64,000 bases of DNA, taken from positions 174,335 through 238,334 of the forward strand of contig CAYHBZ010000001.1 of assembly GCA_964355175.1 (NCBI GenBank), given 5' to 3'. The notes under the pieces are model-generated. The model ran no database searches. It was not told the DNA's origin and saw only the letters and a program-made list of their open reading frames with translations. Positions 29,322-64,000 of this stretch are shown one piece after another. Positions within the stretch are counted from its first letter, which is position 1; each line of letters opens with the position of its first letter. Position numbers and translations under genes: made by a program. This DNA is from an uncultured Gammaproteobacteria bacterium. Lineage in GTDB: Bacteria; Patescibacteriota; Patescibacteriia; Magasanikbacterales; GWA2-37-8.

Positions 29322-29918
29322 TTAGTTAGTATTAGTTAAAGTTATATTATTATAAACCAAAACAAGATCAGATACAATGTCTGTCTTGTGTATATCTAGC
29401 TCATTACTAATTTGTCCCAAAATAAAGGCCTTTTTGTCATTTTTAAGGATTCTTATACCACCACTGGACTGCCGGCGCCTACTGACCAAAAAACAGACGG
29501 CTTTGGCAACGGAAAAAACTTTTGGTAAATAATAGAGATTGTAAAATTTAATAATCAGACTAAAAAAATCCGGTGTTCTGAAATCATTATGATAAGTGAC
29601 CACAAGATTCTTATTTTCCTGCTGAGCCCATTTTATAATTTGATTCGCCGCTCCAAAAAAAGGGCAATGCAAATTGATAATATCGTACTGATCCCAAGAT
29701 TGAGCATTCTGGGATATTGGTTGTTGGCCGATGAATTTATGACCGAGCGCAACCGCTCCCACCTGTTCCTTTTCTTTTCTGGTGGTTTGGCCAAATTCCA
29801 AGGTCATGGCCTCGGACTCTAAGCCCAAACTATTTTCTACTTCCAGCCAGGCAAACGCCTCGGACCGGATGTCGTCAAAATAATTAAAAGCTGATGGAAT
29901 AATGTGTAATACTTTCAT
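29322..29918 (-). CDS. Stand-alone GT4-like N-terminal-domain protein (possible truncated or remnant glycosyltransferase)
   Basis: MKVLHIIPSAFNYFDD... resembles the GT4 N-terminal Rossmann domain. No C-terminal sugar-donor domain follows. The in-frame upstream extension to 30011 overlaps the methyltransferase gene. Confidence 0.35.
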   Translation of the reverse strand: MKVLHIIPSAFNYFDDIRSEAFAWLEVENSLGLESEAMTLEFGQTTRKEKEQVGAVALGHKFIGQQPISQNAQSWDQYDIINLHCPFFGAANQIIKWAQQENKNLVVTYHNDFRTPDFFSLIIKFYNLYYLPKVFSVAKAVCFLVSRRRQSSGGIRILKNDKKAFILGQISNELDIHKTDIVSDLVLVYNNITLTNTN

Positions 29919-29941
29919 ATAATACAAACTGATGCCTAGAT

Positions 29942-30769
29942 TTATTTCATTTTTTTGGCTATCAAATGCAAATTCGGTGAAGGAATATTTTGTAAAACCA
30001 CCGACTCCCAATACACCAAGCTATTTACGGCCGCTTTCAACCAATTAAATATTTTCTTAAACATCCCTTGCTGGGCAAGGCTACCAAAATATTCTTCATT
30101 GTTTAATTGAACTAAATTATTATTTTTAGCACGCCTATCCATGAGATAAAAAGCCAAAACACCGAGCAACTGGCCAAAAAAATGTTCACTGTATTTTTTA
30201 CTATCTATTTTAAAACCAGACTGGATAAAAATATTATACCATTTGGAACGGGAAAAACGATTAATGTGACCGGCGTATTTATTGGTTAGACCATCAAATC
30301 TTTTGCTGAAGCGCAGGCAATGCCACATCGATAAATAATCACCCTCACATGGTATAAAGGAGTAAAATAATCCTTCTGATTTTAAAACTCGTCGTACTTC
30401 GGCCATAGTTTGCTCTACCGATTCTACATGCTCAAGCACATCATAAATTACCACGACATCAAAAAAATTATCCTCAAACGGCCAGCGGCTACTTGGACCA
30501 AATAAATAATTTACACCGTCACCAGTTTCTTTGGCTTTATTTATTGCCACCTCACTAATATCAAAACCATAACACTCGCTAGCGGGCAGCCGCTGTTTGA
30601 TAGCTCGGATAAATTGTCCGGCACCACAGCCAACTTCCAAAATTTTGGCATTGGTTGGAAGACTATTTAAAACTTTTAAAGATTGCGACAAACGAATCGC
30701 GGTAGGGTGTGATGGATTTAAACTAGCCGTATCCTGGCCCCAGATAGATTGATTATAGTCAAAGCTCAT
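29942..30769 (-). CDS. Class I SAM-dependent methyltransferase
   Basis: Motif I ILEVGCGAGQF, motif II FDVVVIYDVLEHV. Confidence 0.8.
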   Translation of the reverse strand: MSFDYNQSIWGQDTASLNPSHPTAIRLSQSLKVLNSLPTNAKILEVGCGAGQFIRAIKQRLPASECYGFDISEVAINKAKETGDGVNYLFGPSSRWPFEDNFFDVVVIYDVLEHVESVEQTMAEVRRVLKSEGLFYSFIPCEGDYLSMWHCLRFSKRFDGLTNKYAGHINRFSRSKWYNIFIQSGFKIDSKKYSEHFFGQLLGVLAFYLMDRRAKNNNLVQLNNEEYFGSLAQQGMFKKIFNWLKAAVNSLVYWESVVLQNIPSPNLHLIAKKMK

Positions 30770-31881
30770 AAGATGGATTTATAAACATTTACCAATTCTT
30801 CCAAATTTTTTTCCATACTAAATTTTTTTATCACTTGTTCGCGACCATTGTGACCAAATTTTTCTCTTTGCTCTGGTGAGAAATCAAAAAATTCTTTAAT
30901 TTTTTTGGCCAGATCATCACTGCTACCGGCAGTAAATAAAAGCCCATTTATCTCTGATTCAATTTTATTTTGCAAAGCGCTAATGCGAGTGGCTATTACC
31001 GGTCTGGAGCAAGCCAGCGACTCCAGTGCCACCAAAGAAAAAGATTCATAATCCGAAGCTATAACCGTAGCCTGAGCCAACGAATAATACTTGGCCAAAG
31101 TTTTTTGGTCATTGATCTGGCCGATAAAATAGACACTTTGCTCCAAATTGAGCTGTTTGGCAATGACCCGATAATCAGTTTCTTCATATCCCCCACCTAC
31201 TACTATTAGCACCAATTCCGGATCAGATAAATTCGCCATAGCTTCCAGTACCAAATCCAAACGCTTCACCGGCATTAAATTGGCCACAAATAATAAAATC
31301 TTTTTACCATTTAATTCCGGCACACCCAAATCAGTGGCTAAAACAATTTTTTTAGAAAAAATTTCCGTATCAATAGCATTATTTATTGTCACCACCTTCT
31401 CCACTGCCACATTTTCTATCAAAGAAAATTGATCAATACTCTGGTCCACCAAAATAACTTTTTTAGCTTTTTTTAATAGAAAAACTCCAACTATTTTATC
31501 ACTAAAAAATTTTATAATATTTTTTACTAATCCTCTTGGCTGAGCGTCCATATGATAAGTCACCACATAAGGCACGCGATAAAAAATACTGGCCAAAAAA
31601 ACCATTGCACCACCGCCATAAAACGGAAAATGTAGGTGCAGCAAATTAAAACCGCGCAGTTTGGTAAATAATTGCGGTACCAAGCCAGCGTCTCCCAGAC
31701 GGAAAAACGAAGATAAATAAACTATTTTTATATCATTACTTGATAATCTTAGATTGTAATCAAGTGTAAAAACCGTCACTTCATGACCCAAACGCACCAA
31801 ACCCAGTGCCTGATTCAAAGCCACTTGCCCCATGCCCCCAATACGCGGCGGAAAGGTAGAAATAACAAAAGCAATTTTCAT
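30766..31881 (-). CDS. GT4-family glycosyltransferase
   Basis: GT-B two-domain layout, MKIAFVISTFPPRIGGMGQV N-terminus, and the C-terminal E-x7-E region typical of GT4. Confidence 0.85.
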   Translation of the reverse strand: MKIAFVISTFPPRIGGMGQVALNQALGLVRLGHEVTVFTLDYNLRLSSNDIKIVYLSSFFRLGDAGLVPQLFTKLRGFNLLHLHFPFYGGGAMVFLASIFYRVPYVVTYHMDAQPRGLVKNIIKFFSDKIVGVFLLKKAKKVILVDQSIDQFSLIENVAVEKVVTINNAIDTEIFSKKIVLATDLGVPELNGKKILLFVANLMPVKRLDLVLEAMANLSDPELVLIVVGGGYEETDYRVIAKQLNLEQSVYFIGQINDQKTLAKYYSLAQATVIASDYESFSLVALESLACSRPVIATRISALQNKIESEINGLLFTAGSSDDLAKKIKEFFDFSPEQREKFGHNGREQVIKKFSMEKNLEELVNVYKSIL

Positions 31882-32211
31882 TTATTTATTTTTATCCTCC
31901 AAAGCATTTTGACGAACCAAGCGGGTGAGGTGTTTTTCGAGCTTTTCCAGCCTGATCCACAATCTAAAGACAAAAAAGGCCAAACCGGCAATCGTGAGAT
32001 ATATCACCGCGTCCACTCCACGACCCACTCCCAAAAATTGGGCCAGCCATACGGCCAAACCCGGACGCAATACTACGATGATAGCACTCAGCCAAAACCC
32101 AAACCAGACCGCGGCATTAAAAAATTTAATTTCCTTGTCTCTAAAACGAAAGGCTACTTTAAAAAGCGCGAAAAAGAAAATTAAAATTAAAAAAAATTGA
32201 ATGGCTGTCAT
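31882..32211 (-). CDS. Small 3-TM membrane protein, DUF2304-like (commonly partnered with GT2 Dpm1-like enzymes)
   Basis: ~109 aa with three hydrophobic helices and a basic C-terminus; lies immediately upstream of a Dpm1-like GT2. Assignment from memory of the family architecture. Confidence 0.45.
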   Translation of the reverse strand: MTAIQFFLILIFFFALFKVAFRFRDKEIKFFNAAVWFGFWLSAIIVVLRPGLAVWLAQFLGVGRGVDAVIYLTIAGLAFFVFRLWIRLEKLEKHLTRLVRQNALEDKNK

Positions 32212-32214
32212 AAA

Positions 32215-32877
32215 TTATTGGCTAATTTTATCTATCAATAAATCGTACAAAATTTTAAAACCGCCGCCTATCCCCTGTCCATTTTCTTCGTAAAATACTT
32301 CCACCGGATATTCCGCGTATTTGAGATTATGCTGTTTTATTAATTTTGGTATTTGCGAATTGTGGGCCATACCATCCTGAGTAATTTTGATTGTGCGCGC
32401 GGCGCGATCATTTAAAACTCGAAAACCATTGTGCACATCAGACAATTTCAAGCCGGTGACAAAATTATTAATCAGTCGACTGACAGGTAAAATAAAGAAA
32501 TTTTTAAAAAAAGGAATGTTGGAACGCTTACCCAAAAACCTTGATCCGAGTACGGCATCCAACTGATTGGAATTGAGTAAATCTACGGCACCAGCAATAT
32601 CTTTGGGATTAAATTGTCCGTCGGCATCAAAATGCACTATCACCTTGGCGCCGGCGCGCAAAGCAAACTCATTGCCGGTTTGCAAAGCGGCACCCTGACC
32701 ACGATTTAATTGATGACACAACACTGTAGCCCCGGCCAGCTCAGCGCCGACAGCAGTGTCATCGGATGATCCATCGTCCACTACCACCACATTATTATAA
32801 CCATGTTCAAAAAGGTCGCGAATGACGCGACCAATTTTTTTCTCTTCATTAAAGGCTGGCACTATGACAAAAATCAT
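32215..32877 (-). CDS. GT2-family glycosyltransferase (dolichyl/polyprenyl-phosphate hexosyltransferase-like)
   Basis: MIFVIVPAFNEE, VVVVDDGSSDDT, DADGQ (DxD) motifs. Confidence 0.85.
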   Translation of the reverse strand: MIFVIVPAFNEEKKIGRVIRDLFEHGYNNVVVVDDGSSDDTAVGAELAGATVLCHQLNRGQGAALQTGNEFALRAGAKVIVHFDADGQFNPKDIAGAVDLLNSNQLDAVLGSRFLGKRSNIPFFKNFFILPVSRLINNFVTGLKLSDVHNGFRVLNDRAARTIKITQDGMAHNSQIPKLIKQHNLKYAEYPVEVFYEENGQGIGGGFKILYDLLIDKISQ

Positions 32878-32895
32878 AACTCAACACTCGCTTGA

Positions 32896-33912
32896 TTATT
32901 TACTACGAAAAAGGAGAGCTTCTTTGTTGGCCACAGTATAATCAATGGTCTTTTGCAGACCATCCTGAGTTCGGGTAAGCGGCAACCAGCCGAGTACATC
33001 TTTGACATAAGTCAGATCAGGTAAACCTTTTTTGGTCAAAAATTCCAACGGCTTTTCAAAAACAATTCTAGAAGTGGAATTGGTAAGCTCAATAATTTTT
33101 TGAGCTATCTGCGCATAGCTGACACTTTCATCTCCTCCCAAATTTACCGCTTTGACATCGGGATCAGCGCTCATTAGGCGCACCAAACCATCCACCATAT
33201 CATTTATATAACAAAGGGTAGTCACCAAAGTTTCATCCCCGTTGATTACCAAATCTTTTCCTTCAATCGCACTAATAATGAAATCAGGAATAAGTTGGCC
33301 TTCAAACAGCTTCATACGCGGACCATAGGTAGTAAAAATTCTGGCGGTCTTGGCATCAATGCCGTAAACTTCGCGATAAGTTTCAATACAGGTCTCGGCA
33401 AAACGCTTTCCTTCGTCATAGCAGGCGCGTGGCGTGAGATGATTTACTACACCCTGATAATTTTCTTTAAATTTTTCACCATCTTTTGGATTGCCATACA
33501 CTACCGAGCTGGAAGCAAAAACATATTTAGCGCGATAGCGAGCCGCCAAATCCAAAGTACTAATCATCGCCGCCGAATTGGACAACAATGATTTCATCTT
33601 GAGTTTTTCAAAATATTTTGGACTAGTAGGACAAGCCAAGTGATAAATTTCCTGAATACCCTGAAATTTTACTTTGAATTTATCCAACTCATCAAACTGA
33701 CTAAGGTCAATTGGTTTATCAACATCATAATTGATAAATTCAAAATCAGGATACTGTAAAAGATGTTCAATGTTGGCCGGAGAAGAATTGGAAAAATCAT
33801 CCAAACAAATCACCTTACCTTCTTTGAGCAACCGTTCGCATAAATGTGATCCGATAAAGCCGGCACCACCTGTAACCAAAATATTTTTCTTCTCAAATAC
33901 CGTGTTAACCAT
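32896..33912 (-). CDS. UDP-glucuronate decarboxylase / UDP-xylose-synthase-like SDR epimerase/dehydratase
   Basis: GGAGFIGSHL Rossmann motif and the catalytic YDEGKRFAE (UXS-type YxxxK). Confidence 0.75.
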   Translation of the reverse strand: MVNTVFEKKNILVTGGAGFIGSHLCERLLKEGKVICLDDFSNSSPANIEHLLQYPDFEFINYDVDKPIDLSQFDELDKFKVKFQGIQEIYHLACPTSPKYFEKLKMKSLLSNSAAMISTLDLAARYRAKYVFASSSVVYGNPKDGEKFKENYQGVVNHLTPRACYDEGKRFAETCIETYREVYGIDAKTARIFTTYGPRMKLFEGQLIPDFIISAIEGKDLVINGDETLVTTLCYINDMVDGLVRLMSADPDVKAVNLGGDESVSYAQIAQKIIELTNSTSRIVFEKPLEFLTKKGLPDLTYVKDVLGWLPLTRTQDGLQKTIDYTVANKEALLFRSK

Positions 33913-33974
33913 ACGTAAAAACGTTAATTTTTATTGGTTCTATTATAACATTTTGGCTAAGTTGTGGCAACAGA

Positions 33975-35525
33975 TTAATATGTCAGCCAATCGTAAGATT
34001 TTGAGGTGTTTTTGTAGGTGGTTTGGGATACTATTTTTTTACCTTTTTTTACCTTTTTCACCATTTTTTGAGCAAAATTAATTTGAATTTTTCTGTCTTC
34101 TTGAGTGTTTACTACTGTAATCTTGGTTGGGACATTAGAAACTGAGTAATCTGAAACAGGTAAAGCCTTTTCCTGCCATTTGCGACCGGTGTCGGTAAAA
34201 AACTGTACAAAATAATGTTTACCACGCCTAACCAAAGCAAATACTTCATCGCGTTTACCATCAAATGACCGTGTAAACCCGATGGTCACAATTGGCGCCT
34301 CGGCAGTGCTGGCAAAAAAATACTTATCTCCATTTTCTATAGTATAGATGGTATTATCTTTAAAATAATACTGTCCCCAAGAAGCGTAGTTAATTGGAAA
34401 TTTTAAAGCAGATGAATTCGCCATTGCTTGACCAATATTCAAACGACCAAAACCCAATTTATTTTTAAATAATGGATTTTTATAATCGATTTTATCAGCA
34501 TTACTTAATAGAGCATTGATAATTTGTTTGGCCGACCAATCCGGATGGTCGGCTTTGAGCAAAGCGGCTGCACCCGCCACGAGCGGAGCGGCAAAGGAAG
34601 TGCCTTGCCAAGGACCGCCAAATTCGTCATTGTATCCATAGATCGGAGCATATCTTTGCAAACTAAAAATTTTTTGTCCAGGTGCCACAATATCCACACA
34701 CTGCCCATAATCGGCAAACGGACTAAGATTATCTTCCTTATCTACCGATGAAACCGACAAGATCCAATTTTCGAGATCGTTGGTATCAAAACAAGCTGGG
34801 TAATTAGGCTTGATATCCAAATTTCCGTCATAATTAAAATCTCGGTCATTTCCCGCGGCCGCCACTATCACCACTCCCTTTTTATAGGCTTCGTATAAAA
34901 CTTGTTTTAAACCACTATCGGACTCATTGCCAATAATACTCATACTTATCACATCAGCCCCATGATAAACGGCATACTGCACAGCTTTGGCTACTTTTAT
35001 ATAAGATCCATTACCATCACTATCTACTGCTCGAAGAGGCATTAAGCTTACTTTCCAATTCAAACCGGACGCACTTTTGTTATTGTTGCCCACCGCCCCC
35101 ACCAGTCCGGCAATAACCGTACCATGATTAATTGCTTCTGGATCACCCACATTATCGAGCACACTTGGACGTACTTGATTGTTATCTTCAATAAAATTCC
35201 AACCGTTCACATCATCTACATACCCATCACTATCATCATCGTAATTATTGTCCGGAATTTCATAAGGATTTATCCAAGCATTAGCCTGTAGGTCATCATG
35301 CCAAATATCAGCACCGGTATCGATAGTAGCTATCACCACCCGGCGGCTACCGGTATTAAAATCCCAGGCTCTGGGAGCCCCTATTTGCTCCCACATTATT
35401 TGTTGCTGAAGATAGGAAGGGTCATTTGGAGCCAAAGCTAGCACATTATCCGTCCAAAGGAAAAAAACAGCTAAAGTAGCTGCTAGGATTGATTTTTTGG
35501 CTAAATTATGATAGAATTCAAACAT
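33975..35525 (-). CDS. Secreted subtilisin-like serine peptidase (S8)
   Basis: Signal peptide. Catalytic triad motifs IDTGAD (Asp), HGTVIAG (His), GTSFAAPLVAG (Ser). Confidence 0.85.
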   Translation of the reverse strand: MFEFYHNLAKKSILAATLAVFFLWTDNVLALAPNDPSYLQQQIMWEQIGAPRAWDFNTGSRRVVIATIDTGADIWHDDLQANAWINPYEIPDNNYDDDSDGYVDDVNGWNFIEDNNQVRPSVLDNVGDPEAINHGTVIAGLVGAVGNNNKSASGLNWKVSLMPLRAVDSDGNGSYIKVAKAVQYAVYHGADVISMSIIGNESDSGLKQVLYEAYKKGVVIVAAAGNDRDFNYDGNLDIKPNYPACFDTNDLENWILSVSSVDKEDNLSPFADYGQCVDIVAPGQKIFSLQRYAPIYGYNDEFGGPWQGTSFAAPLVAGAAALLKADHPDWSAKQIINALLSNADKIDYKNPLFKNKLGFGRLNIGQAMANSSALKFPINYASWGQYYFKDNTIYTIENGDKYFFASTAEAPIVTIGFTRSFDGKRDEVFALVRRGKHYFVQFFTDTGRKWQEKALPVSDYSVSNVPTKITVVNTQEDRKIQINFAQKMVKKVKKGKKIVSQTTYKNTSKSYDWLTY

Positions 35526-35566
35526 AAGCTTATATTTTATTATACACTATAAAAAAAATTTGTTCC

Positions 35567-36919
35567 ATGTATAGGCTCAAACAACTTACAATTTTGCTGG
35601 GTGATTTATTACTGTTATTTGTCGGTCTATACCTAGGCATTTTTTTTCGCTATTTAAAAGCGCCAACCGCACAAGAAATATCGAATTTTTTGAATCCTTT
35701 TACAATATTGTTCTTGCTGGCTACTACTATTATCTTTATTGCCGGCTTATACGATTTGGGCCGGGCAAAAAATAATTTAGGATTTTTCAAAAAAATAATC
35801 TTCGCCGCTATTGTCTGGACAGTAATCGGCGTATTTTACTTTTATATTTTTGGCGACAACCAGATTAATCCTAAAACAATTTTGGTGTTGGCGGCTTTTT
35901 TTGGGTTTGGACTGATTGCACTGTGGCGCTATTTTTACAATCGTTTTATTTCCTTTACTATTCTAAAGACCACTGTGGCCTTTATTGGATACTCAACAGA
36001 GATCAAACGACTCATAGAGGTTATTACCAACAAACCACAGATTGGCTATGAGGTAGTTGGTCTTGTCGGAAAGACTAGTGACACCTCCAACATTCCGGTC
36101 GTATCCAGCTTAGAGAAATTATCACCAAAACCTGATTTGATAGTCCTAGACTTCAATTACGAAAAAGATGACTCGCTGACCAAAGAGCTCTATCAAAATA
36201 TCTTCAGACAGACGAGTATCATTGAACTAGCGGACTTTTATGAAATGATTTTTCATCGTCTGCCACCTTTTACTTTTTCAGAAAGTTGGTTTCTGACAAA
36301 ATTTCAAGAGCAATCAAAAAAAATATACGACCGTTTCCGATTAATTATCGACTATATTGCCGCCACAATTATCGCGATTTTTTTTGCAATTACTTTTCCA
36401 CTGGTCGGGTTGGCTATAAAGTTAAATTCCAGGGGCCCAATTTTTTTCCGTCAAGCGCGAGTGGGTAGACATGGTCAGATATTTTTTATCTACAAATACC
36501 GCACCATGAAGGCGCTTCGGGCCGATGGTAGTGCTGAAATTAACGGACCACAATATGCCAGCGAAAAAGATGACCGCATTACTGGTGTGGGCAAATTCTT
36601 GCGCGCCACCCGAATTGATGAAATACCTCAATTTATCAATATTTTTAAAAATGAAATGGGCTTGATTGGTCCACGCCCCGAACGTCCTGAATTTGTTTCT
36701 CAGCTTACAGAATTGATGCCGTTTTATCCCCTACGACACTTGATAAAACCGGGCTGTACCGGCTGGGCTCAGCTTCAGCGTGGATATTATGGCACCTTGG
36801 ATGAAAATCTAGGCAAGCTGGAATACGATTTATTTTATATAAAAAATCGCGGTCCAGCTTTGGATATCGCGATTGTTTTAAAAACTTTTAGTGTAATATT
36901 TGGAATGATCGGTCGCTAA
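35567..36919 (+). CDS. Polyprenyl-phosphate glycosyl-1-phosphate transferase (bacterial sugar transferase, WbaP/PglC-like initiating enzyme)
   Basis: N-terminal TM domain. C-terminal catalytic domain (RFRLIIDYIAA..., PGCTGWAQ..., KLEYDLFYIKNRGPALD). Confidence 0.85.
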   Translation: MYRLKQLTILLGDLLLLFVGLYLGIFFRYLKAPTAQEISNFLNPFTILFLLATTIIFIAGLYDLGRAKNNLGFFKKIIFAAIVWTVIGVFYFYIFGDNQINPKTILVLAAFFGFGLIALWRYFYNRFISFTILKTTVAFIGYSTEIKRLIEVITNKPQIGYEVVGLVGKTSDTSNIPVVSSLEKLSPKPDLIVLDFNYEKDDSLTKELYQNIFRQTSIIELADFYEMIFHRLPPFTFSESWFLTKFQEQSKKIYDRFRLIIDYIAATIIAIFFAITFPLVGLAIKLNSRGPIFFRQARVGRHGQIFFIYKYRTMKALRADGSAEINGPQYASEKDDRITGVGKFLRATRIDEIPQFINIFKNEMGLIGPRPERPEFVSQLTELMPFYPLRHLIKPGCTGWAQLQRGYYGTLDENLGKLEYDLFYIKNRGPALDIAIVLKTFSVIFGMIGR

Positions 36920-38008: not shown

Positions 38009-38026
38009 AATTTCTAAGTCTGAAAA

Positions 38027-39124: not shown

Positions 39125-39125
39125 A

Positions 39126-39968: not shown

Positions 39969-39969
39969 A

Positions 39970-41022: not shown

Positions 41023-41023
41023 A

Positions 41024-41875: not shown

Positions 41876-41950
41876 AATTAAGATTTCTATGGTCGAGCCA
41901 AATAAATTTATTTATTTGCGAGGCCCGAAGTAATCGCAAGCGCGTAGCGC

Positions 41951-43021: not shown

Positions 43022-43025
43022 AATT

Positions 43026-43883: not shown

Positions 43884-44027
43884 AGAATATAACTAGGCCT
43901 ATTAGATATTAATTTTCGCCGCGAGAACTGTTTGAAGTGGCGAGAACCAAAATTGCTGTCTGCAGTGAGAATAATTCGCCACAAGTTTTCGAGCAAGAAA
44001 ATTCATATCTATGAGGCCGTAAACTAC

Positions 44028-44432: not shown

Positions 44433-44439
44433 ATAATAA

Positions 44440-51503: not shown

Positions 51504-51514
51504 ACTAATAAATT

Positions 51515-52015: not shown

Positions 52016-52241
52016 ACTACCCTGTAAAAAATTAAGGTCCTATATCCCGCCGAAAAATATCGGCGGGATAAGGACGCGATGACAGGTGGCTAGCGTGCTA
52101 GCCTAAAAGCTTCCAAAAAAAATTCGACAAGAGGTTACTCGTTGCCGAAATCTTTTTGGGTCCCCCTCCCCTATTCATTGCACATTTATTATAGCACATT
52201 TTTTGAGAGGCTCCCCTTTTATCCCCTGTGGATAACTTTTT
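52016..52241 (-). promoter_or_regulatory. Structured 5' leader region: extended -10 promoter (TGcTATAAT on minus strand, complement of 52188-52196), attenuator-like hairpin plus U-run (52112-52158), then two GC-rich hairpins before the start codon at 52015
   Basis: Minus-strand TGCTATAAT. Hairpin AATTCGACAAG...CGTTGCCGAAAT is flanked by A8 and T5 (bidirectional terminator geometry). Perfect hairpins ATCCCGCCGA-aaaat-TCGGCGGGAT (52046-52072) and GGCTAGC-gt-GCTAGCC (52091-52106). G-rich GGGGAGGGGGACCC. A plus-strand hairpin plus T7 at 52211-52241 abuts the upstream gene's stop. Confidence 0.45.
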
Positions 52242-57046: not shown

Positions 57047-57048
57047 AT

Positions 57049-58908
57049 ATGTGCGGGATTGCTGGAAAATTATATTTTAAACAAAATCGCGGCATAGCCA
57101 AAGAAGAAATTCGCGCAATGACTGACGCGATACACCATCGCGGGCCAGATGACACCGGAATTTTTATTGACCAAAATCTAGGATTAGGACACTGCCGTTT
57201 ATCAATTATTGATCTATCCAGCGCCGGACACCAGCCTATGGGTTCGAGTGACGAAAAAACTTGGATTACTTTTAACGGCGAGATATATAACTTTTTGGAT
57301 CTAAAAAAAGAACTCGAAGCGGACGGTATCCAATTCCACTCCAATACTGATACGGAAATCATAATTTACTTATACCGTAAATACGGAGTTGATTGTCTAA
57401 AAAAATTACGCGGCATGTTTGCTTTTGCTATTTGGGACAAAGATAAAAGAGAATTATTTGTGGCCCGCGACCGAGTGGGTAAAAAACCGATAAAATACTA
57501 CTACGACAAAAACATATTTATATTTGCTTCTGAATTAAAAGCGATTTTAAAAAATAAAGAAGTCAAAAAAGAAATTGACTATTCGGCGATCGATCAATAC
57601 CTTACTTTTGGCTATGTCCCAACACCAAAAACCGGTTATAAAAATATTTATAAATTAGAACCGGCCAACTACATGATAGTAAACGAATCCGGCAAAGTTA
57701 TCAAAAAACAGTATTGGGATATAGATTTTTCACAAAAATTAAACCTGGATGAGACGGAATGGGAAAATAAAATTTTAAATAAACTTCAAGAATCAATAAA
57801 AATAAGACTGATGGCCGATGTGCCGCTGGGGGCTCATTTGTCTGGCGGCGTTGATTCTAGTTTGATAGTAGCCTTGATGTCTGAACAAATGTCACAAAGG
57901 GTGAAAACATTTTCGATTGGCTTTGAAGAAAAGAGTTACGACGAAACAAAATATGCCCGTCTGGTAGCTAAAAAATATAATACTGAACACACAGAGGTAT
58001 TTATCAAACCAGATGTCGCCACAATAATTCCTGCACTTGCCAATCAATACGAAGAACCATTTGCTGACAATTCTGCTTTGCCCACCTGGTATCTATGCCA
58101 AGCGACCAAACAAAAATTGACTGTGGCGCTAAATGGGGACGGTGGTGATGAAAATTTCGCCGGCTACAAACGCTACGAAATGATGAAATTTTATAATGCT
58201 CTAAAATATTTACCAGCAAAAAATATCAACGGCAAAATTTCGGAAATAATTTATAAGACTACCGGCATAAAAAATTTCTTACGCCTGAAACAGGTGCTGA
58301 TAAATCTAAATTTAGATCCTATAAATTTTTATACCAATAATACCGCTCATTTTAGCGACGAAGATAAAATTGTTTTATACAGTGATGATTTTAAAAAAAA
58401 TATTGGCCAGCACGAAATGCCTTATAAAAAAATATTCGAACAAACAACAAAATTAGAATGGTTGGATAAATTTTTATATTTAGGGATAAAATCCCACCTA
58501 CCAGATGACCTTATACCAAAAGTAGACATTTCCTCTATGGCGTTTGGCTTGGAAATCCGCTCCCCATTACTTGATCATGAATTAATGGAACTGGCCGCGC
58601 AGATGCCAAGCGCGTTAAAAATCAAAGGCTTAAACAAAAAATACTTGCTCAAAAAAATTGCCTATAAATACCTACCAAAAGAATGTATCGACAGACCAAA
58701 GCAAGGATTTGATGCCCCACTTGAATTTTGGTTTAAAAACAACTTAAAAAATTTCTTCTTGGAATCTAATATAATAAACGAACTGGTTCAAATAGGACTA
58801 AACAAAAAATATCTTGAAGACATAATTGACGATAATTCATCAAAGATGTTCAACCATTCTAAAAAGATTTGGAATTTGATAATGTTGGCTAATTGGTTAA
58901 AAATATGA
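57049..58908 (+). CDS. asnB: Asparagine synthase (glutamine-hydrolysing), polysaccharide-locus type (WbpS-like amidotransferase)
   Basis: MCGIAG N-terminal nucleophile, PP-loop SGGVDSS, and overall AsnB length. Confidence 0.9.
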   Translation: MCGIAGKLYFKQNRGIAKEEIRAMTDAIHHRGPDDTGIFIDQNLGLGHCRLSIIDLSSAGHQPMGSSDEKTWITFNGEIYNFLDLKKELEADGIQFHSNTDTEIIIYLYRKYGVDCLKKLRGMFAFAIWDKDKRELFVARDRVGKKPIKYYYDKNIFIFASELKAILKNKEVKKEIDYSAIDQYLTFGYVPTPKTGYKNIYKLEPANYMIVNESGKVIKKQYWDIDFSQKLNLDETEWENKILNKLQESIKIRLMADVPLGAHLSGGVDSSLIVALMSEQMSQRVKTFSIGFEEKSYDETKYARLVAKKYNTEHTEVFIKPDVATIIPALANQYEEPFADNSALPTWYLCQATKQKLTVALNGDGGDENFAGYKRYEMMKFYNALKYLPAKNINGKISEIIYKTTGIKNFLRLKQVLINLNLDPINFYTNNTAHFSDEDKIVLYSDDFKKNIGQHEMPYKKIFEQTTKLEWLDKFLYLGIKSHLPDDLIPKVDISSMAFGLEIRSPLLDHELMELAAQMPSALKIKGLNKKYLLKKIAYKYLPKECIDRPKQGFDAPLEFWFKNNLKNFFLESNIINELVQIGLNKKYLEDIIDDNSSKMFNHSKKIWNLIMLANWLKI

Positions 58909-60179
58909 TAAAAAAAATAAAAGATACTATATATAGGGCACTGAAGTGGTCGGAAAAATATACTAAGACCGACATGAAATACCTGGCGCGAGGAGGATTC
59001 TGGCTAACGGCTTCTCAATTTATGACTAGCACAAGCGCCTTTGTTTTATCACTAGCCTTTACAAATTTAATTTCGCCTGAAAAATACGGCTTATATAAAT
59101 ACATCCTTTCCTTAGGAGCATTATTTGGAGCATTTACACTAACCGGGTTAGACCTAGCTTTAATCCGAGCTTCATCATCAAAAGGATTGAAAATTTTAAA
59201 GTCAGCCTTCAAATTGAATTACAAATGGAGCATACCTTTCATACTTGGAATGATTTCGTTGAGCGTATACTATTTTTTTCAAAGAAACTACACTATCGCT
59301 TCAGCTATTTTATTAATTGCATTATTTCAACCATTACAAGACAGCTCCTTTGTATATGATTCAATTTTAAGAGGATTGAAAGATTTTAAAAATAGCGCTA
59401 GATACTCTGCGATTAAAACTTTCGCTATAACATTATTATTGTTCTTAACATTATTGATTACCAAAAATATTTCAATTATAATATTGATATATTATGCTGG
59501 CGGCAGTCTGATCACATATCTATTTTATGTGATTTTAAACAAAAAAAATGCACAAAATATAGAAGAGAAAGAGGTGGACGCTAGCACAATTAAACTTAGC
59601 AAACATTTGAGTTTATTAAATCTAGCAAATATATTAATTGAACAAATTGACAAGGTTGTTGTTTTCCATTTTTTTGGTGCCGTCCAACTAGCCACATACA
59701 GCTTAGCGATTGCATTACCAGGACAAATAACAACTCTACTTAAAAAAATACCGGAATTAGCATTACCAAAATTTAGCACGAAAACGACAAAGGAAGTAGG
59801 CGAATCTTTTTTTAAACATAGCAAAACAATAATATTTTTTATGATTCCGGTTGTAATAATTTATATAATAGCCTCTCCATTTTTATTTAAACTTCTTTTC
59901 CCGCAATATATTGGTGCCATATTTCTCTCTCAAATTTATGCCCCGATACTTTTAGTATCAGGCAACTTATTAACACCAGCTCTCACCGCCAACCAGGCAA
60001 TAAGAGAGCAATACTTTCTAAGTATCGTTTCTTCAATAATTCGATTAGTATTGCTTTCTTCTCTTACTTATTTTTTTGGGATAATCGGTCTAATTTTATC
60101 CCGAGTAATCACAAAATACATATCCTACTTCTTGGGACTATGGCTAATAAATAAAAAAGTAGAAAGAGCCGCTGATTAA
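58893..60179 (+). CDS. Polysaccharide/O-unit flippase (Wzx, MOP superfamily)
   Basis: ~12 TM helices and a Wzx-like N-terminus (ARGGFWLTASQFMTSTSAFVLSLAF). Confidence 0.7.
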   Translation: MVKNMIKKIKDTIYRALKWSEKYTKTDMKYLARGGFWLTASQFMTSTSAFVLSLAFTNLISPEKYGLYKYILSLGALFGAFTLTGLDLALIRASSSKGLKILKSAFKLNYKWSIPFILGMISLSVYYFFQRNYTIASAILLIALFQPLQDSSFVYDSILRGLKDFKNSARYSAIKTFAITLLLFLTLLITKNISIIILIYYAGGSLITYLFYVILNKKNAQNIEEKEVDASTIKLSKHLSLLNLANILIEQIDKVVVFHFFGAVQLATYSLAIALPGQITTLLKKIPELALPKFSTKTTKEVGESFFKHSKTIIFFMIPVVIIYIIASPFLFKLLFPQYIGAIFLSQIYAPILLVSGNLLTPALTANQAIREQYFLSIVSSIIRLVLLSSLTYFFGIIGLILSRVITKYISYFLGLWLINKKVERAAD

Positions 60180-60913
60180 TGGTTATTCAATTTAATATAA
60201 ATTAAAATTCCTTGAGAAAATAGCTTAGGGAAAACCTTATTTAGGATTGGCAAACCTTCATAAAGAACCATCTTTTCAATTTCAAGATCCATGGACTGAA
60301 CCCAAAAATTCATATCTGTCACTGTCCAAAAACGCAAATGTTCGGCTGGATGCACAACCCACTGGAGAGGAAAGCGCCCAAATAACAAACGCAAACGGTG
60401 AGCATAATAACCGCTATTAGGGACCGACATTATCAAGCCATAGCGCGCTTTCTTGCGAATATTATAAAGAAATGTCTCCGAGTTGGCCATATGTTCAATA
60501 ATTTCAAATGCAGTAATATAATCTACCTCTGGCAAAAGATTATAATTATTGAGATTATTTGCATCGGTACAAACAACATTTATACCAAGATTCTGTGCTG
60601 TATCAAAGATCTTATCATCTATATCTATTCCAACTACCGGACCCATACCTCTTTCTTTTAGATACTCTAATAACGCGCTGTCACCGTATCCAATATCCAA
60701 AATAGAAGATCCCGGCTTAATTATTTTCAAGGCAATGTCGGCTCTCTGTTTTTGCCAAGAGCTTAAAACCTGATGTCCACCCCCTCTTCTACGAAGCCAA
60801 TACTTCTCATAATCAACAGAAAATTCATTTCCATAATCACATTTTGGATAACCAGATATCTGTTTAAAATCTCGATGCAATATCCCTAAAAAATTTTTGA
60901 CTGTTTTTAGCAT
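60176..60913 (-). CDS. Class I SAM-dependent methyltransferase (MetW-like)
   Basis: ILDIGYGDSALLEYLKERG motif I and MetW-like overall pattern. Confidence 0.6.
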   Translation of the reverse strand: MLKTVKNFLGILHRDFKQISGYPKCDYGNEFSVDYEKYWLRRRGGGHQVLSSWQKQRADIALKIIKPGSSILDIGYGDSALLEYLKERGMGPVVGIDIDDKIFDTAQNLGINVVCTDANNLNNYNLLPEVDYITAFEIIEHMANSETFLYNIRKKARYGLIMSVPNSGYYAHRLRLLFGRFPLQWVVHPAEHLRFWTVTDMNFWVQSMDLEIEKMVLYEGLPILNKVFPKLFSQGILIYIKLNNH

Positions 60914-62511
60914 AATATTCTATCAAATAATAAATTTATGTCAGGGGTGACCGGCCAAACAATATCTTTTTTGGAACTATATTTTTTTAGAGCGGCCAGC
61001 AACTTCTCCTCGCTGAAATCTTTTTCCAATTGAATAGCTAGATTATCATCTTTTAAGTAGTGCCCCAAATCAAACGAGCTCTGGATCTGTATTATTGGTA
61101 TTTCATAATAAATCATTTCGCTTAAAAATGTACTATATTCACCCATGATCGCATCGATTTTCTCTAATACCCCAGAATTTATATTATCTACCACTGTTAT
61201 ATTATCAACTGGAGAAAACCCATAGTCGTTCAGCTGTTTTTCTTTGCTAATATCTGGTCTAATTTTAAAAAATAAATTAATTCCCATTTTTAGTAATCGT
61301 CTCACATATTTCTTATTTTCATCGCCAGACAATGCTATCTCATATGGAATAAGGATATTTAGATCGCCGACCGACGTTGGAATCGGCCTTCTAATATAAC
61401 TAATTTGCGGCAATCGACGTAACCAACCTCCGACAGATACGTTATCTGCACCATACTGTGTACTGAAATTTAATAAAATTTTTTTCCAATAATCATTCCA
61501 AACAAATAATTTATCAAAAGTTACTGATCCTTTTTTTGACAACCCATAATTCATCCACCCTACGTGATATTTAGTATATTGTCCATGTTGAAGCCCAAAT
61601 GATTTTACTCCATTTTTATGGCAGGCTATAATCAATTCGTTAGTATAACGCACATCATCTAAAGCCACCAGAGTTTTTAAACTGGAATTCCTAATAATCC
61701 AATCCAATTTTTTAAACAAATTAAAACTTATAGAAATTCTCTTGGCTATATTTTTTACTAGACTTCTAAAAAAAATTTTTACATATAGCTCTTCGGTTAT
61801 ATCTAGGTCTACTTCACCAATCTTTATCGGAGATACAAACCATGAAAAAGAGTCCAAATAAATTACAGTTTTTTTTCTTTTTATTAAATTTAATAAAAAA
61901 TTTTTTCCTAAATCAGTATGCATCACCTCTATAAAATCTTTTTGTTTATCCCTTAAATAACTATAGAGCGGATATATTCTAAAATCACAACCTAAACTAG
62001 AAAGTATATCGGGGCTATAAACTATGATTGGTACTTTCTTTAAAAATAATTTAATTACTGCCAATAACGAAATGATCATGGCTAAAAACTTGGTGCCAGT
62101 GAATATAAAATATCGAAAAAAATTAGCGACCATGGATCGACCTTCAATTAAAACCACTTCTCCGGCAAAAATATTTTCAATAATTCTGTTCAAATCAGCA
62201 CTAGCTTTTTGAATAATTAACCTATCAAATTTGGCATTATTTAAATATTTTATTAATTCTTCGTATTTTGAAAAATATCGAAAGAACGACCAAAATAATA
62301 TTTCTTGATTAAATGACCACGCCTCATATCCTTCAATTTTAAAAATTTTAGACAGGTAATTACCATCCTTAGTTTTTAATTCATTGAATTTTTTTAAAAG
62401 AGTTAACGCTCTAGGAAGATCATCCTTTGTATTAAATTCCGCCACTACTTTATTTTCAGCACTCATTACTACAACAACGCCTTCTCTTTCATTTATTGAA
62501 TAGGCGCTCAT
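60907..62511 (-). CDS. Hypothetical 534-aa protein, possibly a capsule/surface-carbohydrate biosynthesis glycosyl- or ulosonic-acid transferase
   Basis: No canonical GT2/GT4 motifs. One internal hydrophobic helix. Co-oriented and overlapping with the KdsB-like gene. Function inferred only from context. Confidence 0.3.
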   Translation of the reverse strand: MSAYSINEREGVVVVMSAENKVVAEFNTKDDLPRALTLLKKFNELKTKDGNYLSKIFKIEGYEAWSFNQEILFWSFFRYFSKYEELIKYLNNAKFDRLIIQKASADLNRIIENIFAGEVVLIEGRSMVANFFRYFIFTGTKFLAMIISLLAVIKLFLKKVPIIVYSPDILSSLGCDFRIYPLYSYLRDKQKDFIEVMHTDLGKNFLLNLIKRKKTVIYLDSFSWFVSPIKIGEVDLDITEELYVKIFFRSLVKNIAKRISISFNLFKKLDWIIRNSSLKTLVALDDVRYTNELIIACHKNGVKSFGLQHGQYTKYHVGWMNYGLSKKGSVTFDKLFVWNDYWKKILLNFSTQYGADNVSVGGWLRRLPQISYIRRPIPTSVGDLNILIPYEIALSGDENKKYVRRLLKMGINLFFKIRPDISKEKQLNDYGFSPVDNITVVDNINSGVLEKIDAIMGEYSTFLSEMIYYEIPIIQIQSSFDLGHYLKDDNLAIQLEKDFSEEKLLAALKKYSSKKDIVWPVTPDINLLFDRILC

Positions 62512-63281
62512 ATGTTTAAATAGCTCGGCAACAAATCATCAGTTGACAAAAAATTTTCCACTATATCGAAATCTTTTTGATTATCTACGCTATATAAATG
62601 AACGTCAGAATTTAAAATATTAATTTTTTGTCCATGTTCGATTAATCTGAACATGTCTACTGAATTGGCTTTTTCCAACGGGGTAGATTCAAATTGAATA
62701 TATTGTTTTAAATTTTCTAAACGAAAACCAATAATTCCTGTCTGTATATATATCGGCAAGCTGTGAATATTTTTTTCCAAAAATGGATCGGGTAAACGAA
62801 AAAACCAAATTGCTTGACTATTATTATTAGTAATAATTTTTACAGTGTCTTTGTCGTGGTATACATCCTCATTGGTGATATTATTTATAACATTCAATAC
62901 TCCAACGGAAGAATCAATTTCAAAAATATCTACCATTTTATCTAAAACTTCAGGACGCACAGTTGGTTCATCACCTTGTATCATTATGACAGCGTCCACT
63001 TTTTTTCCTTGTATGGATTCGATCTTCATGATTGCCTCGGCAACCCTCTCGGTAGGTCTTTCGTGCACATTGCTAGTCATTATAGCTTTACCGCCAATTG
63101 AAATAATATAATCAAAGATCTCTTTGTCACATGTTGCTACATATAAATCGTCAATTTTTTTAGATTTTTGACTGCGATAATAAACGTGACCAACCATTGG
63201 TATGCCGTGAATTTTTTTTAATGGTTTTCCAGGAAAACGCGAAGCCCCCATTCTTGCTGGAATAATTCCGACAATATACAT
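62508..63281 (-). CDS. CMP-sugar synthetase of the KdsB family (3-deoxy-manno-octulosonate cytidylyltransferase-like)
   Basis: IIPARMGASRFPGKPL, GTER-like PTERVAEA, QGDEPTV, and the C-terminal VDT-like region all align by eye with E. coli KdsB. Confidence 0.75.
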   Translation of the reverse strand: MYIVGIIPARMGASRFPGKPLKKIHGIPMVGHVYYRSQKSKKIDDLYVATCDKEIFDYIISIGGKAIMTSNVHERPTERVAEAIMKIESIQGKKVDAVIMIQGDEPTVRPEVLDKMVDIFEIDSSVGVLNVINNITNEDVYHDKDTVKIITNNNSQAIWFFRLPDPFLEKNIHSLPIYIQTGIIGFRLENLKQYIQFESTPLEKANSVDMFRLIEHGQKINILNSDVHLYSVDNQKDFDIVENFLSTDDLLPSYLNI

Positions 63282-63292
63282 ATAAGAATTTA

Positions 63293-64000
63293 TTAATTAC
63301 CAAATAAATTTAACAAAAATTCCTCAGTATCTTCCCAACTCAAACAGGGATCTGTTATGGATAAACCGGACATGTCCATTGAGGACGTTATTTCCTGTTT
63401 TCCTCCCTTCAGAAAACTTTCTAACATAAAACCACGAACAATTTCTCTAGCGATAGGATTGCTTTTACGAAATTCAACTATTTGACTAACCACCTCAATC
63501 TGTCTTCTTACATCCTTTACTCCATTTACCAAACAATTATCGTGACTAGCATCTATAACTATGGCTGAATTATTTATCAAATTTTTTTTCATTAATTCTT
63601 GAGCCTTTAAAATATTTTCTATACCAAAATTTGGACCAGTATAATTACCTCCCCTCAACACTAAATGTGTGTAATGGTTACCACTAGTAATAACCTGATA
63701 ACCACCAAATATAGTTGTATGTGAGTTCTGAGCTGCTATCACACTATTAACGCCTATCTCAATAGATCCGCTCGTAGGATTTTTCATACCCACAGGACAA
63801 TCAACCGATGATGCGTATATTCTATGTTCTTGGTCTTCAGAACTACGGGCTCCAATAGCCATCCATGATAAAAGATTAGGGAAAAATTTCATACTATCAT
63901 GGGTAAACAGCGCCTCATTTGCAATCGGCAAACCAATTTTCAGAACATCTAACATTAGAGATCTGGTATAGCGAATCCCATCCGCTACATCAGGTTCATC
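63293..64000 (-). CDS. Class I-alpha (AroG-type) 3-deoxy-7-phosphoheptulonate (DAHP) synthase-family enzyme; partial, N-terminus beyond the window
   Basis: IGARSSEDQEHRIYASSVDCPVGMKNPTSG aligns with AroG [48 protein letters not shown] and GLSITDPCLSWEDTEEF align with AroG ILRGG, IDFSHAN, VMVESHL and GKSITDACIGWEDTD. The reading frame stays open upstream of M63955 to the window edge. Confidence 0.75.
   Translation of the reverse strand, partial: DEPDVADGIRYTRSLMLDVLKIGLPIANEALFTHDSMKFFPNLLSWMAIGARSSEDQEHRIYASSVDCPVGMKNPTSGSIEIGVNSVIAAQNSHTTIFGGYQVITSGNHYTHLVLRGGNYTGPNFGIENILKAQELMKKNLINNSAIVIDASHDNCLVNGVKDVRRQIEVVSQIVEFRKSNPIAREIVRGFMLESFLKGGKQEITSSMDMSGLSITDPCLSWEDTEEFLLNLFGN

Follow-up and report, generated by a model that had tools for sequence, protein, structure and literature searches.

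Three adjacent glycan modules, probably not a single locus, in 35 kb of a Candidatus Magasanikbacteria chromosome

The 64-kb window analysed here (the whole stretch of DNA, 64,000 nucleotides, in whose coordinates all positions are given) contains a dense accumulation of glycan-biosynthesis genes between 29322 and 64000. With a probability of roughly 0.7, this interval represents a neighbourhood of three adjacent glycan modules in a Candidatus Magasanikbacteria chromosome and not a single operon-like locus. Overall it is a mosaic glycan-biosynthesis cluster of known type, with no visible polymerase and of a size that is not exceptional for the lineage. The nearest relatives of its FtsW (89%, 72% and 54% identity) all derive from metagenome-assembled genomes (MAGs) of Candidatus Magasanikbacteria, in agreement with the small-genome organism proposed by the initial annotation, which a model had made from the sequence alone; the host is a bacterium of the Candidate Phyla Radiation (CPR), presumably with a single membrane. 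Genes were called from a six-frame listing of open reading frames (ORFs) combined with Pfam, NCBIfam and PDB sequence searches.

The interval possesses 32 genes, approximately 26 of them glycan-related, with a coding fraction of about 95%. Module A (29322-33912) contains a UDP-glucuronate decarboxylase (UXS), a GacI/GacJ-like pair, a GT4 glycosyltransferase and a methyltransferase. Module B (35567-45932) comprises an initiator, RmlA, RmlB, an FdtA-like cupin, RmlD, four GT2 glycosyltransferases and a phosphoglucose/phosphomannose isomerase (PGI/PMI), and adjoins FtsW. Module C (52242 to beyond 64000) combines genes for a UDP-N-acetylhexosamine (HexNAc) uronic acid and its amidation with a UDP-glucose 6-dehydrogenase (UGDH), a GT4, a Wzx flippase and ulosonate genes. 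Six genes within the interval are not glycan genes. The complete set, followed by one gene outside the interval, is given below with scores in bits and, where stated, model cut-offs:

29322-29918, minus strand: half-length GT4 of ~198 amino acids from MKVLHIIPS, N-terminal Rossmann domain only (Pfam Glyco_transf_4, E 1e-3)
29942-30769, minus: class I S-adenosylmethionine methyltransferase (Methyltransf_11, 78.5 bits)
30766-31881, minus: GT4 (Glycos_transf_1, 121.7 bits, plus Glyco_transf_4)
31882-32211, minus: small DUF2304 membrane protein, GacJ/Rv3632-type activator (PF10066, 88.4 bits)
32215-32877, minus: GT2 of 220 amino acids, polyprenyl-phosphate-HexNAc synthase-like (PpgS/GacI-like; Glycos_transf_2, 76.8 bits)
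32896-33912, minus: UXS-like short-chain dehydrogenase/reductase (SDR; 220 bits to human UXS1, 2b69 and 4gll)
33975-35525, minus: S8 subtilase (non-glycan)
35567-36919, plus: large polyprenyl-phosphate phosphoglycosyl transferase, WbaP/WcaJ-type initiator (Bac_transf, 180.9 bits; TIGR03025, 316, cut-off 295.6)
36920-38008, minus: glucose-1-phosphate thymidylyltransferase, long form, RmlA (TIGR01208, 330.7, cut-off 320.25)
38027-39124, minus: GT2 (Glycos_transf_2)
39126-39968, minus: GT2 (Glycos_transf_2)
39970-41022, minus: GT2 (Glycos_transf_2)
41024-41875, minus: GT2 (Glycos_transf_2)
41951-43021, minus: bifunctional PGI/PMI (bact-PGI_C, 103 bits; NF006425, 246 bits, below cut-off)
43026-43883, minus: RmlD-type dTDP-4-dehydro-6-deoxyhexose reductase (TIGR01214, 240.5, cut-off 224)
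44028-44432, minus: FdtA/QdtA-like cupin of 134 amino acids, dTDP-sugar 3,4-ketoisomerase family (PF05523, 77 bits; FdtA 2pa7, 69.7 bits)
44919-45932, minus: dTDP-glucose 4,6-dehydratase, RmlB (TIGR01181, 437.6, cut-off 365)
45945-47045, minus: FtsW (TIGR02614, 375, cut-off 337; non-glycan)
47047-47400, minus: protein with three transmembrane (TM) segments, 3-TM protein (non-glycan)
47505-47780, plus: ribosomal protein L27, 91 amino acids (non-glycan)
47907-51503, minus: secreted lamin-tail domain (LTD) surface protein, 1198 amino acids (non-glycan)
51515-52015, minus: 166-amino-acid protein (non-glycan)
52242-53159, minus: WbpP/WbgU/TviC-type UDP-hexose(NAc/NAcA) 4-epimerase (PDB 1sb8 WbpP, 180 bits; WbgU, 173 bits)
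53164-54462, minus: TviB/WbpO-like UDP-HexNAc 6-dehydrogenase (NF011729 TviB, 421.8, cut-off 592; TIGR03026, 397, cut-off 190)
54464-55852, minus: UGDH-like dehydrogenase (TIGR03026, 272, cut-off 190)
55922-57046, plus: GT4 (Glycos_transf_1, 119 bits; partial TviE similarity)
57049-58908, plus: AsnB-type glutamine amidotransferase (Asn_synthase, 303 bits, plus GATase_7; TIGR03108, 635, below 817)
58893-60179, plus: Wzx/MOP-family flippase (Polysacc_synt_3, 55.6 bits; Polysacc_synt, 48.8 bits, above cut-off)
60176-60913, minus: MetW-like methyltransferase (MetW, 52 bits)
60907-62511, minus: orphan GT-B-fold protein, 534 amino acids, predicted CMP-ulosonate transferase (no family match)
62508-63281, minus: KdsB-family CMP-ulosonate synthetase (CTP_transf_3, 123.7 bits)
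63293 to beyond 64000, minus: type I-alpha 3-deoxy-D-arabino-heptulosonate 7-phosphate (DAHP) synthase, C-terminal 235 of 342 amino acids in the window, frame open at the window edge
4817-6943, minus (outside the interval): orphan polytopic GT-C-fold glycosyltransferase, candidate acceptor-side transferase

Strand switches occur at 35567, at 47505 and at 55922-60179. Because of these changes of orientation, the very short divergent and convergent junctions and the interspersed genes, the interval is likely to contain at least seven transcription units. The putative units are:

UXS to the GT4 fragment, preceded by the S8 gene, which may be co-transcribed with module A
the initiator by itself, plus strand
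3-TM, FtsW and RmlB, followed after a 24-nt hairpin and a 487-bp spacer by the genes from the FdtA-like one to RmlA
L27, plus strand
the 166-amino-acid gene and the LTD gene
UGDH, TviB-like dehydrogenase and epimerase
GT4, AsnB and Wzx, plus strand
HAD hydrolase, DAHP synthase, KdsB-like gene, 534-amino-acid gene and methyltransferase

Promoter-like sites match the consensus at 11 of 12 positions before UXS (33970-33942) and before UGDH (55912-55884), and at 12 of 12 before L27; downstream of L27 a bidirectional terminator is located at 47789-47815, likewise a consensus match only.

The modules differ in their conservation. Together with FtsW, module B keeps its gene order in seven related loci (L003, L004, L005, L006, L032, L035 and L036), with amino-acid identities of 43-96% (80-96% in L003). 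As it adjoins FtsW in every relative examined, it is read as a lineage-conserved core beside cell-wall genes, and as a pathway for a cell-wall glycopolymer rather than a variable capsule. At the position of module C, L003 possesses only the epimerase (50% identity), UGDH (57%) and a different SDR. Module C is therefore variable in that the sole comparable relative differs in gene content, and its genes have a GC content of 0.30-0.36 as against 0.36-0.44 for most other genes of the window. The initial annotation had left it to a comparison of related genomes which modules vary: module B is syntenic across relatives and module C differs in L003.

Long dense glycan stretches recur in Patescibacteria. 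Three loci that had been fetched for other reasons (L026, L027 and L028) contain little besides glycan genes over at least 15.5-21.6 kb, these extents being lower bounds; therefore the size of the interval is not exceptional for the lineage, and it results partly from three modules lying side by side. The one composite, exceptionally large locus claimed earlier for more than half the window accordingly splits into three modules and at least seven likely transcription units with housekeeping and surface genes between them, and comparably dense stretches exist in other Patescibacteria. Among open-access papers, nothing was found on glycan loci of Magasanikbacteria.

The gene families named in the earlier inventory (at least 28 genes in ~35 kb) are mostly present, among them the PglC/WbaP-like initiator (TIGR03025 above cut-off), the Wzx flippase (Polysacc_synt_3 and Polysacc_synt), PGI/PMI at 41951-43021 and the two methyltransferases at 29942-30769 (Methyltransf_11) and 60176-60913 (MetW). 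Its glycosyltransferase counts and its ulosonate synthase needed correction, and six unrelated genes interrupt the region. Pfam gives five GT2 genes (32215-32877 and the four in tandem at 38027-41875) instead of six; of three GT4 genes two are intact (30766-31881 and 55922-57046), the third being the N-terminal half-domain at 29322-29918. As enzyme families, all three nucleotide-sugar branches are confirmed: UDP-glucuronic acid (UDP-GlcA) to UDP-xylose, a dTDP branch with an FdtA-like gene and without RmlC, and a UDP-HexNAc uronic acid. Nothing supports an involvement of the S8 protease, FtsW or the LTD protein in a glycan pathway, and they were rejected as members. Profile matches of the intact enzymes span essentially entire models, and therefore the widespread pseudogenisation that would have undone the initial annotation is excluded; apart from the half-length GT4 there are no signs of pseudogenes in the interval. 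Rfam at gathering thresholds yields no match anywhere in the window.

No evidence for a chimera or mis-assembly, the other possibility raised at the outset, was found, and independent assemblies and synteny argue against it. The independent Logan contig L049 is 100% identical over 31971-37608 and spans the junctions of module A, S8 and module B; contigs L001 and L002 are 100% identical over 62047-64000; and L003, a relative of 89% identity, is collinear over 35362-52251, including the junction into module C with the 166-amino-acid gene, the epimerase and UGDH.

Two other explanations of the interval have to be weighed against three neighbouring modules. The whole 35 kb might form a single, exceptionally large and co-functioning locus of O-antigen or capsule type, all three branches of which feed one heteropolymer. 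The high density of glycan genes would fit such a locus, as would the fact that just one initiator and one Wzx serve all glycosyltransferases and that UGDH in module C and UXS in module A make sense only jointly. We consider it unlikely, given the number of likely transcription units with their orientation switches, the intervening FtsW, L27, S8 protease and 1198-amino-acid surface protein, a module B that is conserved in the closest relative while module C is replaced, the drop of GC in module C and the similarly dense stretches of other Patescibacteria. It is far more improbable still that the apparent size is an artefact of a chimeric assembly or of mis-binned foreign DNA in module C. In its favour, GC decreases from ~0.40 to 0.30-0.35 between 56 and 64 kb, the lineage is a metagenome-assembled one, and exact-match look-ups of two module C proteins (the 534-amino-acid protein and AsnB) gave no record. 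Against this stand, besides the identical contigs and the collinearity of L003 through the module C junction, the records of the DAHP synthase and KdsB-like proteins on contigs of 0.2-1 Mb and the normal gene abutments or overlaps of 4-16 nt at 57046/57049, 58893-58908 and 60176-60179; moreover, variable glycan genes usually have low GC.

Several points weigh against the three-module reading and the pathway built on it. The promoter and terminator calls that help to delimit units are consensus matches only, and the independent confirmation of the assembly does not reach 52-62 kb. UGDH and UXS are located ~20 kb apart in different modules, so that their co-operation is assumed. Equivalog models mostly stay below cut-off (TviB, TviC, PpgS, the XrtA-associated amidotransferase and TIGR00466 KdsB), which leaves the substrate calls at family level only. 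PGI/PMI may simply be a housekeeping isomerase, and Wzy, a LytR-CpsA-Psr (LCP) ligase, an ABC exporter or RmlC could be encoded elsewhere in the genome, beyond the window. The orphan GT-C, finally, lies 22 kb off and shares only the window with the glycan modules, to which its link is hypothetical.

In module B, synthesis of a polyprenyl-diphosphate-linked glycan would begin with the WbaP-type transferase, which has six hydrophobic segments; a dTDP-6-deoxyhexose would come from RmlA, RmlB, the FdtA-like cupin and RmlD, and chain extension would fall to the four GT2 enzymes. The tandem GT2 genes are syntenic in L003, L005, L006, L032, L035 and L036, and several of them are weakly similar to the TIGR01556 rhamnosyltransferase subfamily. 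The cupin keeps the His-x-His motif, its HCH being aligned to HAH of FdtA, the pair mutated in deposited FdtA variant structures. An ORF of 202 amino acids was rejected as the extent of this gene, since homologues and the start codon in the sequence give 134 amino acids. A metagenome scan with the cupin yielded 17 loci of 46-89% identity, all 17 with RmlB immediately upstream, as is also found in L003, L004 and L005; RmlD follows the cupin in those loci wherever the sequence suffices. Genes for an inositol monophosphatase, NUDIX, SLT and NusG, unrelated to the trio, are occasionally inserted.

RmlC was not detected as PF00908 in the scan of window ORFs with 100 amino acids or more, nor by tblastn with E. 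coli RfbC in the window and 15 related loci (L001-L012 and L026-L028), and neither RmlC nor a DegT-type aminotransferase occurs in the fetched flanks of the 17 metagenome loci. The window likewise lacks DegT_DnrJ_EryC1 and hexapeptide acyltransferase genes. With the invariant adjacency in 17 loci and neither RmlC nor an aminotransferase beside it, RmlB-FdtA-like-RmlD is therefore, as far as its sequence context indicates, a conserved trio. The initial annotation had noticed that RmlC and an aminotransferase are missing nearby and had called the dTDP-sugar product ambiguous; both statements stand, the ambiguity now being one of the lineage. The trio can be read in three ways: the cupin takes the place of RmlC; the RmlD-type enzyme reduces a 3-keto intermediate, which gives a D-configured 6-deoxyhexose; or RmlC is in every case encoded elsewhere. 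The trio may thus be an RmlC-independent route to a dTDP-6-deoxyhexose, and no prior description of such a route was found among open-access papers.

It is also quite possible, if somewhat short of an even chance, that the branch makes ordinary dTDP-L-rhamnose with a canonical RmlC elsewhere, the cupin serving an unrelated amino-sugar pathway whose aminotransferase is elsewhere too. RmlA, RmlB and RmlD exceed their equivalog cut-offs, several of the GT2 resemble rhamnosyltransferases weakly, and only 64 kb of the genome is visible, outside of which RmlC could lie. That the FdtA-like gene follows RmlB in every locus of the scan and in three relatives, with RmlD next where the sequence allows and neither RmlC nor a DegT-type aminotransferase in the flanks, is difficult to reconcile with this; adjacency conserved in this way speaks for a joint action of the three genes. 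The FdtA/QdtA pathways to dTDP-3-amino-3,6-dideoxyhexoses of Aneurinibacillus and Thermoanaerobacterium likewise use RmlA, RmlB and then an FdtA-like cupin (134 amino acids here) with His-x-His, but the window has no FdtB/QdtB aminotransferase or acyltransferase, and an RmlD-type reductase is the conserved partner instead.

Between RmlB and the FdtA-like gene lies a non-coding spacer of 487 bp (44433-44918, GC 0.47), which starts with a 24-nt inverted repeat right behind the stop codon of RmlB. L003 lacks the spacer, and L004 has only 62 bp in common with it. The spacer (44432-44918) matches no Rfam family, a permissive scan giving only chance miRNA matches on the hairpin. ORF 44509-44814 was rejected as a gene, as it has no matches and lies in this spacer absent from L003.

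In module C, the TviB-like dehydrogenase and the 4-epimerase would yield a UDP-HexNAc uronic acid, to be amidated by the AsnB-type enzyme. The latter has the N-terminus MCGIAG with Cys2 intact, and by analogy a WbpS-like role in uronic acid amidation is inferred for it. The epimerase reaches 162 bits against the TviC model (cut-off 760), and UGDH, a member of the three-domain family, has AglM and TuaD as its best equivalog models, both below cut-off. Of the amidated UDP-HexNAc uronic acid branch named by the initial annotation, dehydrogenase, 4-epimerase and AsnB are thus present as families, while equivalog cut-offs are not reached. The UGDH plus UXS branch is supported at the same level of sequence families: UGDH exceeds the TIGR03026 cut-off, and UXS scores 220 bits to human UXS1 with the next enzyme class in the PDB search at only 85 bits.

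The Vi antigen (TviB/TviC) and the WbpO/WbpP/WbpS system of Pseudomonas aeruginosa O6 share with module C an adjacent TviB-like dehydrogenase and WbpP/TviC-type epimerase, as well as an AsnB-type enzyme with Cys2 and a partly TviE-like GT4, here in a divergent unit. These enzymes of module C all stay below equivalog cut-offs, however, and a TviD/TviE-type polymerase set and a Vex exporter are missing.

The distal part of module C contains the ulosonate genes. The complete DAHP synthase gene and a preceding HAD hydrolase gene just past the window end can be read in L001 and L002, which are 100% identical. The CMP-ulosonate module of the initial annotation is present, but its synthase, assumed to be KdsA/NeuB-like, is an AroFGH-type DAHP synthase (TIGR00034, aroFGH, 296, cut-off 173; NF009395, 346, cut-off 343). 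It retains the KPRT motif, the four metal ligands, the PEP-binding residues and the catalytic residues; every listed PDB match is a DAHP synthase (~161-214 bits), and KdsA is not matched. The KdsB-like protein scores above the cut-off for NF003952 (223.5, cut-off 193) and below it for NF009905 (238, cut-off 255) and TIGR00466 (126.6, cut-off 155). Genes for HAD, DAHP synthase, CTP_transf_3, a Pfam-less protein of ~530 amino acids and MetW are also clustered, slightly reordered, in L027 and L028, with the MetW-like methyltransferase adjoining the orphan GT-B there too.

The 534-amino-acid protein has a GT-B fold. Foldseek against the PDB gives general GT-B matches only; one of the best fold matches is WaaA. 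A word-indexed search found 17 homologues, none with a Pfam domain, and both of those with a named source are Patescibacteria. The full profile search extends the family to 1,315 cluster representatives (50% identity) at E <=1e-3, of which 378 are at E <=1e-30; none of eight tested single-domain members has a Pfam match. The profile matches neither PDB sequences nor a Capsule_synth protein. Fusions with a CTP_transf_3 cytidylyltransferase (P0354, 700 amino acids) and with a GT4 domain (P0254, 885 amino acids) occur. As a soluble protein with a GT-B fold it was rejected as a candidate Wzy.

Homologues of the DAHP synthase with 56-59% identity are located in complete shikimate operons (L029, L030, L050 and L051, of which L050 belongs to a Magasanikbacteria MAG). 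In a neighbour-joining tree the three DAHP synthases from glycan settings fall into a clade of nine sequences, and all four shikimate-operon genes lie outside. Mapped onto AroG, the substitutions specific to the clade lie at residues 142, 149, 150 (with an insertion of one residue), 152, 160 and 175, in a region (142-175) which we take to be the phenylalanine feedback site; on sequence grounds these substitutions would fit a release from amino-acid regulation with catalysis retained. Tentatively, a CPR clade has recruited a copy of the shikimate DAHP synthase into glycan biosynthesis, leading to a CMP-activated heptulosonic acid and a new GT-B family. The synthase would make DAHP, the HAD phosphatase would remove the phosphate, the KdsB-family enzyme would CMP-activate the sugar acid, MetW-like methyltransferases would perhaps O-methylate it, and the orphan GT-B would transfer it to the cell surface; the predicted product is 3-deoxy-D-arabino-heptulosonic acid, a 7-carbon analogue of 3-deoxy-D-manno-octulosonic acid (Kdo). 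Such a Kdo-like pathway, its substrates and products being predictions from enzyme families, appears the most economical reading. Neither a DAHP synthase-KdsB glycan module nor this heptulosonic acid as a glycan constituent was found in open-access papers.

That the synthase is instead an ordinary shikimate enzyme beside glycan genes, with the KdsB-like enzyme activating another sugar such as Kdo made elsewhere, seems improbable to us. The aroFGH equivalog cut-off is exceeded, the standard catalytic residues are all present and the homologues in complete shikimate operons, one of them in Magasanikbacteria, would agree with an ordinary role; yet the five genes are clustered in three genomes, L027 and L028 have no shikimate gene within ~10 kb, the genes from glycan settings form their own clade, and the substitutions in the presumed phenylalanine site fit lost amino-acid control. 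In L026, furthermore, the pair of GT-B and cytidylyltransferase is accompanied not by a DAHP synthase but by an HpcH/HpaI aldolase, another route to a 2-keto-3-deoxy sugar acid. This locus (2407-11602) contains a SIS protein, a GFO/IDH/MocA oxidoreductase, a 2-hydroxyacid dehydrogenase, a B12-radical SAM protein, the HpcH/HpaI aldolase, a methyltransferase, CTP_transf_3 and the orphan GT-B, and suggests a family of different CMP-activated keto-deoxy sugar acids in Patescibacteria.

The proposed recruitment follows the logic of the Kdo pathway (KdsD, KdsA, KdsC, KdsB and WaaA) with a PEP-dependent synthase, a HAD phosphatase, a KdsB-family CMP synthetase and a GT-B transferase. It differs in that the synthase is of type I-alpha with KPRT and not KdsA, KdsD is missing, the transferase belongs to a family absent from Pfam and NCBIfam and not to the Kdo transferases (WaaA of GT30, KpsC/KpsS of Capsule_synth), the module includes one or two MetW-like methyltransferases, and the predicted sugar has seven carbons. 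The complete shikimate and aromatic amino-acid operons of L050 and L051, including the Magasanikbacteria MAG GCA_016193335.1, run counter to the usual picture of CPR bacteria without amino-acid biosynthesis.

In module A, UXS would make UDP-xylose from UDP-GlcA supplied by the UGDH of module C. The 220-amino-acid GT2 lies 3 bases from the DUF2304 gene, whose product has three to four predicted TM segments, so that a GacI/GacJ-type pair is present; the best NCBIfam match of the GT2 is NF058614 PpgS with 176.7 bits, under the equivalog cut-off of 370 bits. GacJ has been assigned to DUF2304, and the experimentally studied GacI/GacJ and PpgS/Rv3632 systems make polyprenyl-monophosphate-HexNAc, which is used extracellularly by a GT-C enzyme (bioRxiv 10.1101/180810). 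The pair in module A would make the same kind of donor for decoration outside the membrane, a step for which the orphan GT-C at 4817-6943 is a candidate; its family consensus has no WWDYG motif, and therefore it is not called an oligosaccharyltransferase. The half-length GT4 at the end of the module, of which only profile positions 69-133 are matched, has no C-terminal Glycos_transf_1 and 30% identity over 50 amino acids to the neighbouring GT4, is probably a remnant. Directly downstream of module A, after a 16-bp gap, a membrane-anchored thioredoxin/GILT-like protein is encoded at 28460-29305 (minus strand), which may be co-transcribed with it.

The mycobacterial PpgS (Rv3631)/Rv3632 polyprenyl-phospho-GalNAc system resembles module A in that PpgS is the best match of the GT2 and a DUF2304 partner adjoins; it differs in that the score here is below the model's cut-off. 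The streptococcal clusters for rhamnose-rich cell-wall polysaccharides, represented by the Group A carbohydrate locus (gacA-L), have in common with the window a gene of the RmlD family, several transferases of GT2 type, a GacI-like GT2 beside a DUF2304 GacJ-like protein (bioRxiv 10.1101/180810), a Wzx-like flippase (cf. GacK), the need for a GT-C (cf. GacL), for which the window has the GT-C-fold orphan, and a conserved core module associated with cell-wall genes. In contrast to them, the window has no GacD/GacE-type ABC exporter, the initiator is WbaP-type instead of GacO/WecA-type, RmlC is lacking, an FdtA-like cupin is encoded, and the orphan GT-C does not resemble GacL-type families in sequence.

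Wzx would flip the completed lipid-linked glycan; no polymerase is visible in the window. The only proteins with more than four hydrophobic segments in the interval are the initiator, FtsW and Wzx, the last with at least eight. The initial annotation had seen no Wzy, Wzz or ABC transporter, and neither did the family scans: the window contains no match to Wzy_C, O-antigen polymerase, EpsG or Wzz, tblastn with E. coli WbbH is blank (Wzy diverging fast), no ABC_tran or ABC2_membrane protein of a Wzm/Wzt or KpsMT exporter is encoded, and no LCP signature lies within 29322-64000. The related locus L027 has an ABC exporter beside the orphan GT-B. Wzx/Wzy-dependent O-antigen and capsule loci share the WbaP/WcaJ-type initiator, several GT2 and GT4, the Wzx/MOP flippase, clustered nucleotide-sugar genes and a low-GC variable part, but the window is without detectable Wzy, chain-length regulator or ligase, its modules are split by housekeeping genes, and its CPR host presumably has no outer membrane.

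Attachment to host cells is the presumed way of life of CPR bacteria, whose surfaces are, to our knowledge, almost uncharacterised. A conserved core linked to the cell wall beside a variable flank separates likely structural glycans from those likely under diversification by phage or host recognition. If the recruitment proposed for the DAHP synthase is true, it represents a new nucleotide-activated ulosonic acid, a new glycosyltransferase family and an enzyme of primary metabolism turned to surface chemistry; the RmlB-FdtA-like-RmlD trio would similarly lead to a 6-deoxyhexose in a non-canonical way, perhaps one widespread in CPR. The interest of the window lies in the DAHP synthase-based module, the RmlC-less dTDP trio and the orphan GT-C family, all testable with recombinant enzymes and no culture.

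Some features between and beside the modules are worth recording. In L006 and L007, the genes for MraZ, RsmH, small membrane proteins and a 941-amino-acid AAA+ (ClpB-like) protein run directly into FtsW and the 3-TM gene. The MraZ-RsmH block of the window is located at 12328-17312, 30 kb from FtsW and 3-TM (45945-47400); the cell-division cluster is split by rearrangement here, and an AAA+ protein within such a cluster is itself unusual. The apparent spacer 47401-47906, with 79-95% identity to relatives, was rejected as a non-coding RNA: it encodes ribosomal protein L27, whose gene is below the 100-amino-acid limit of the ORF listing and accounts for this identity. The LTD protein between modules B and C consists of 50-70% Ser/Thr at residues ~450-575 and is a plausible O-glycosylation substrate of the neighbouring enzymes; L003 also possesses a gene at this position, of which only the start aligns with the window. 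The beginning of the window may be a mobile or foreign segment, with a low-GC (0.32) gene for a PEP-utilising mobile domain protein at 138-1598 and a TrwB/TraG-like type IV coupling protein at 1648-3822, both on the minus strand.

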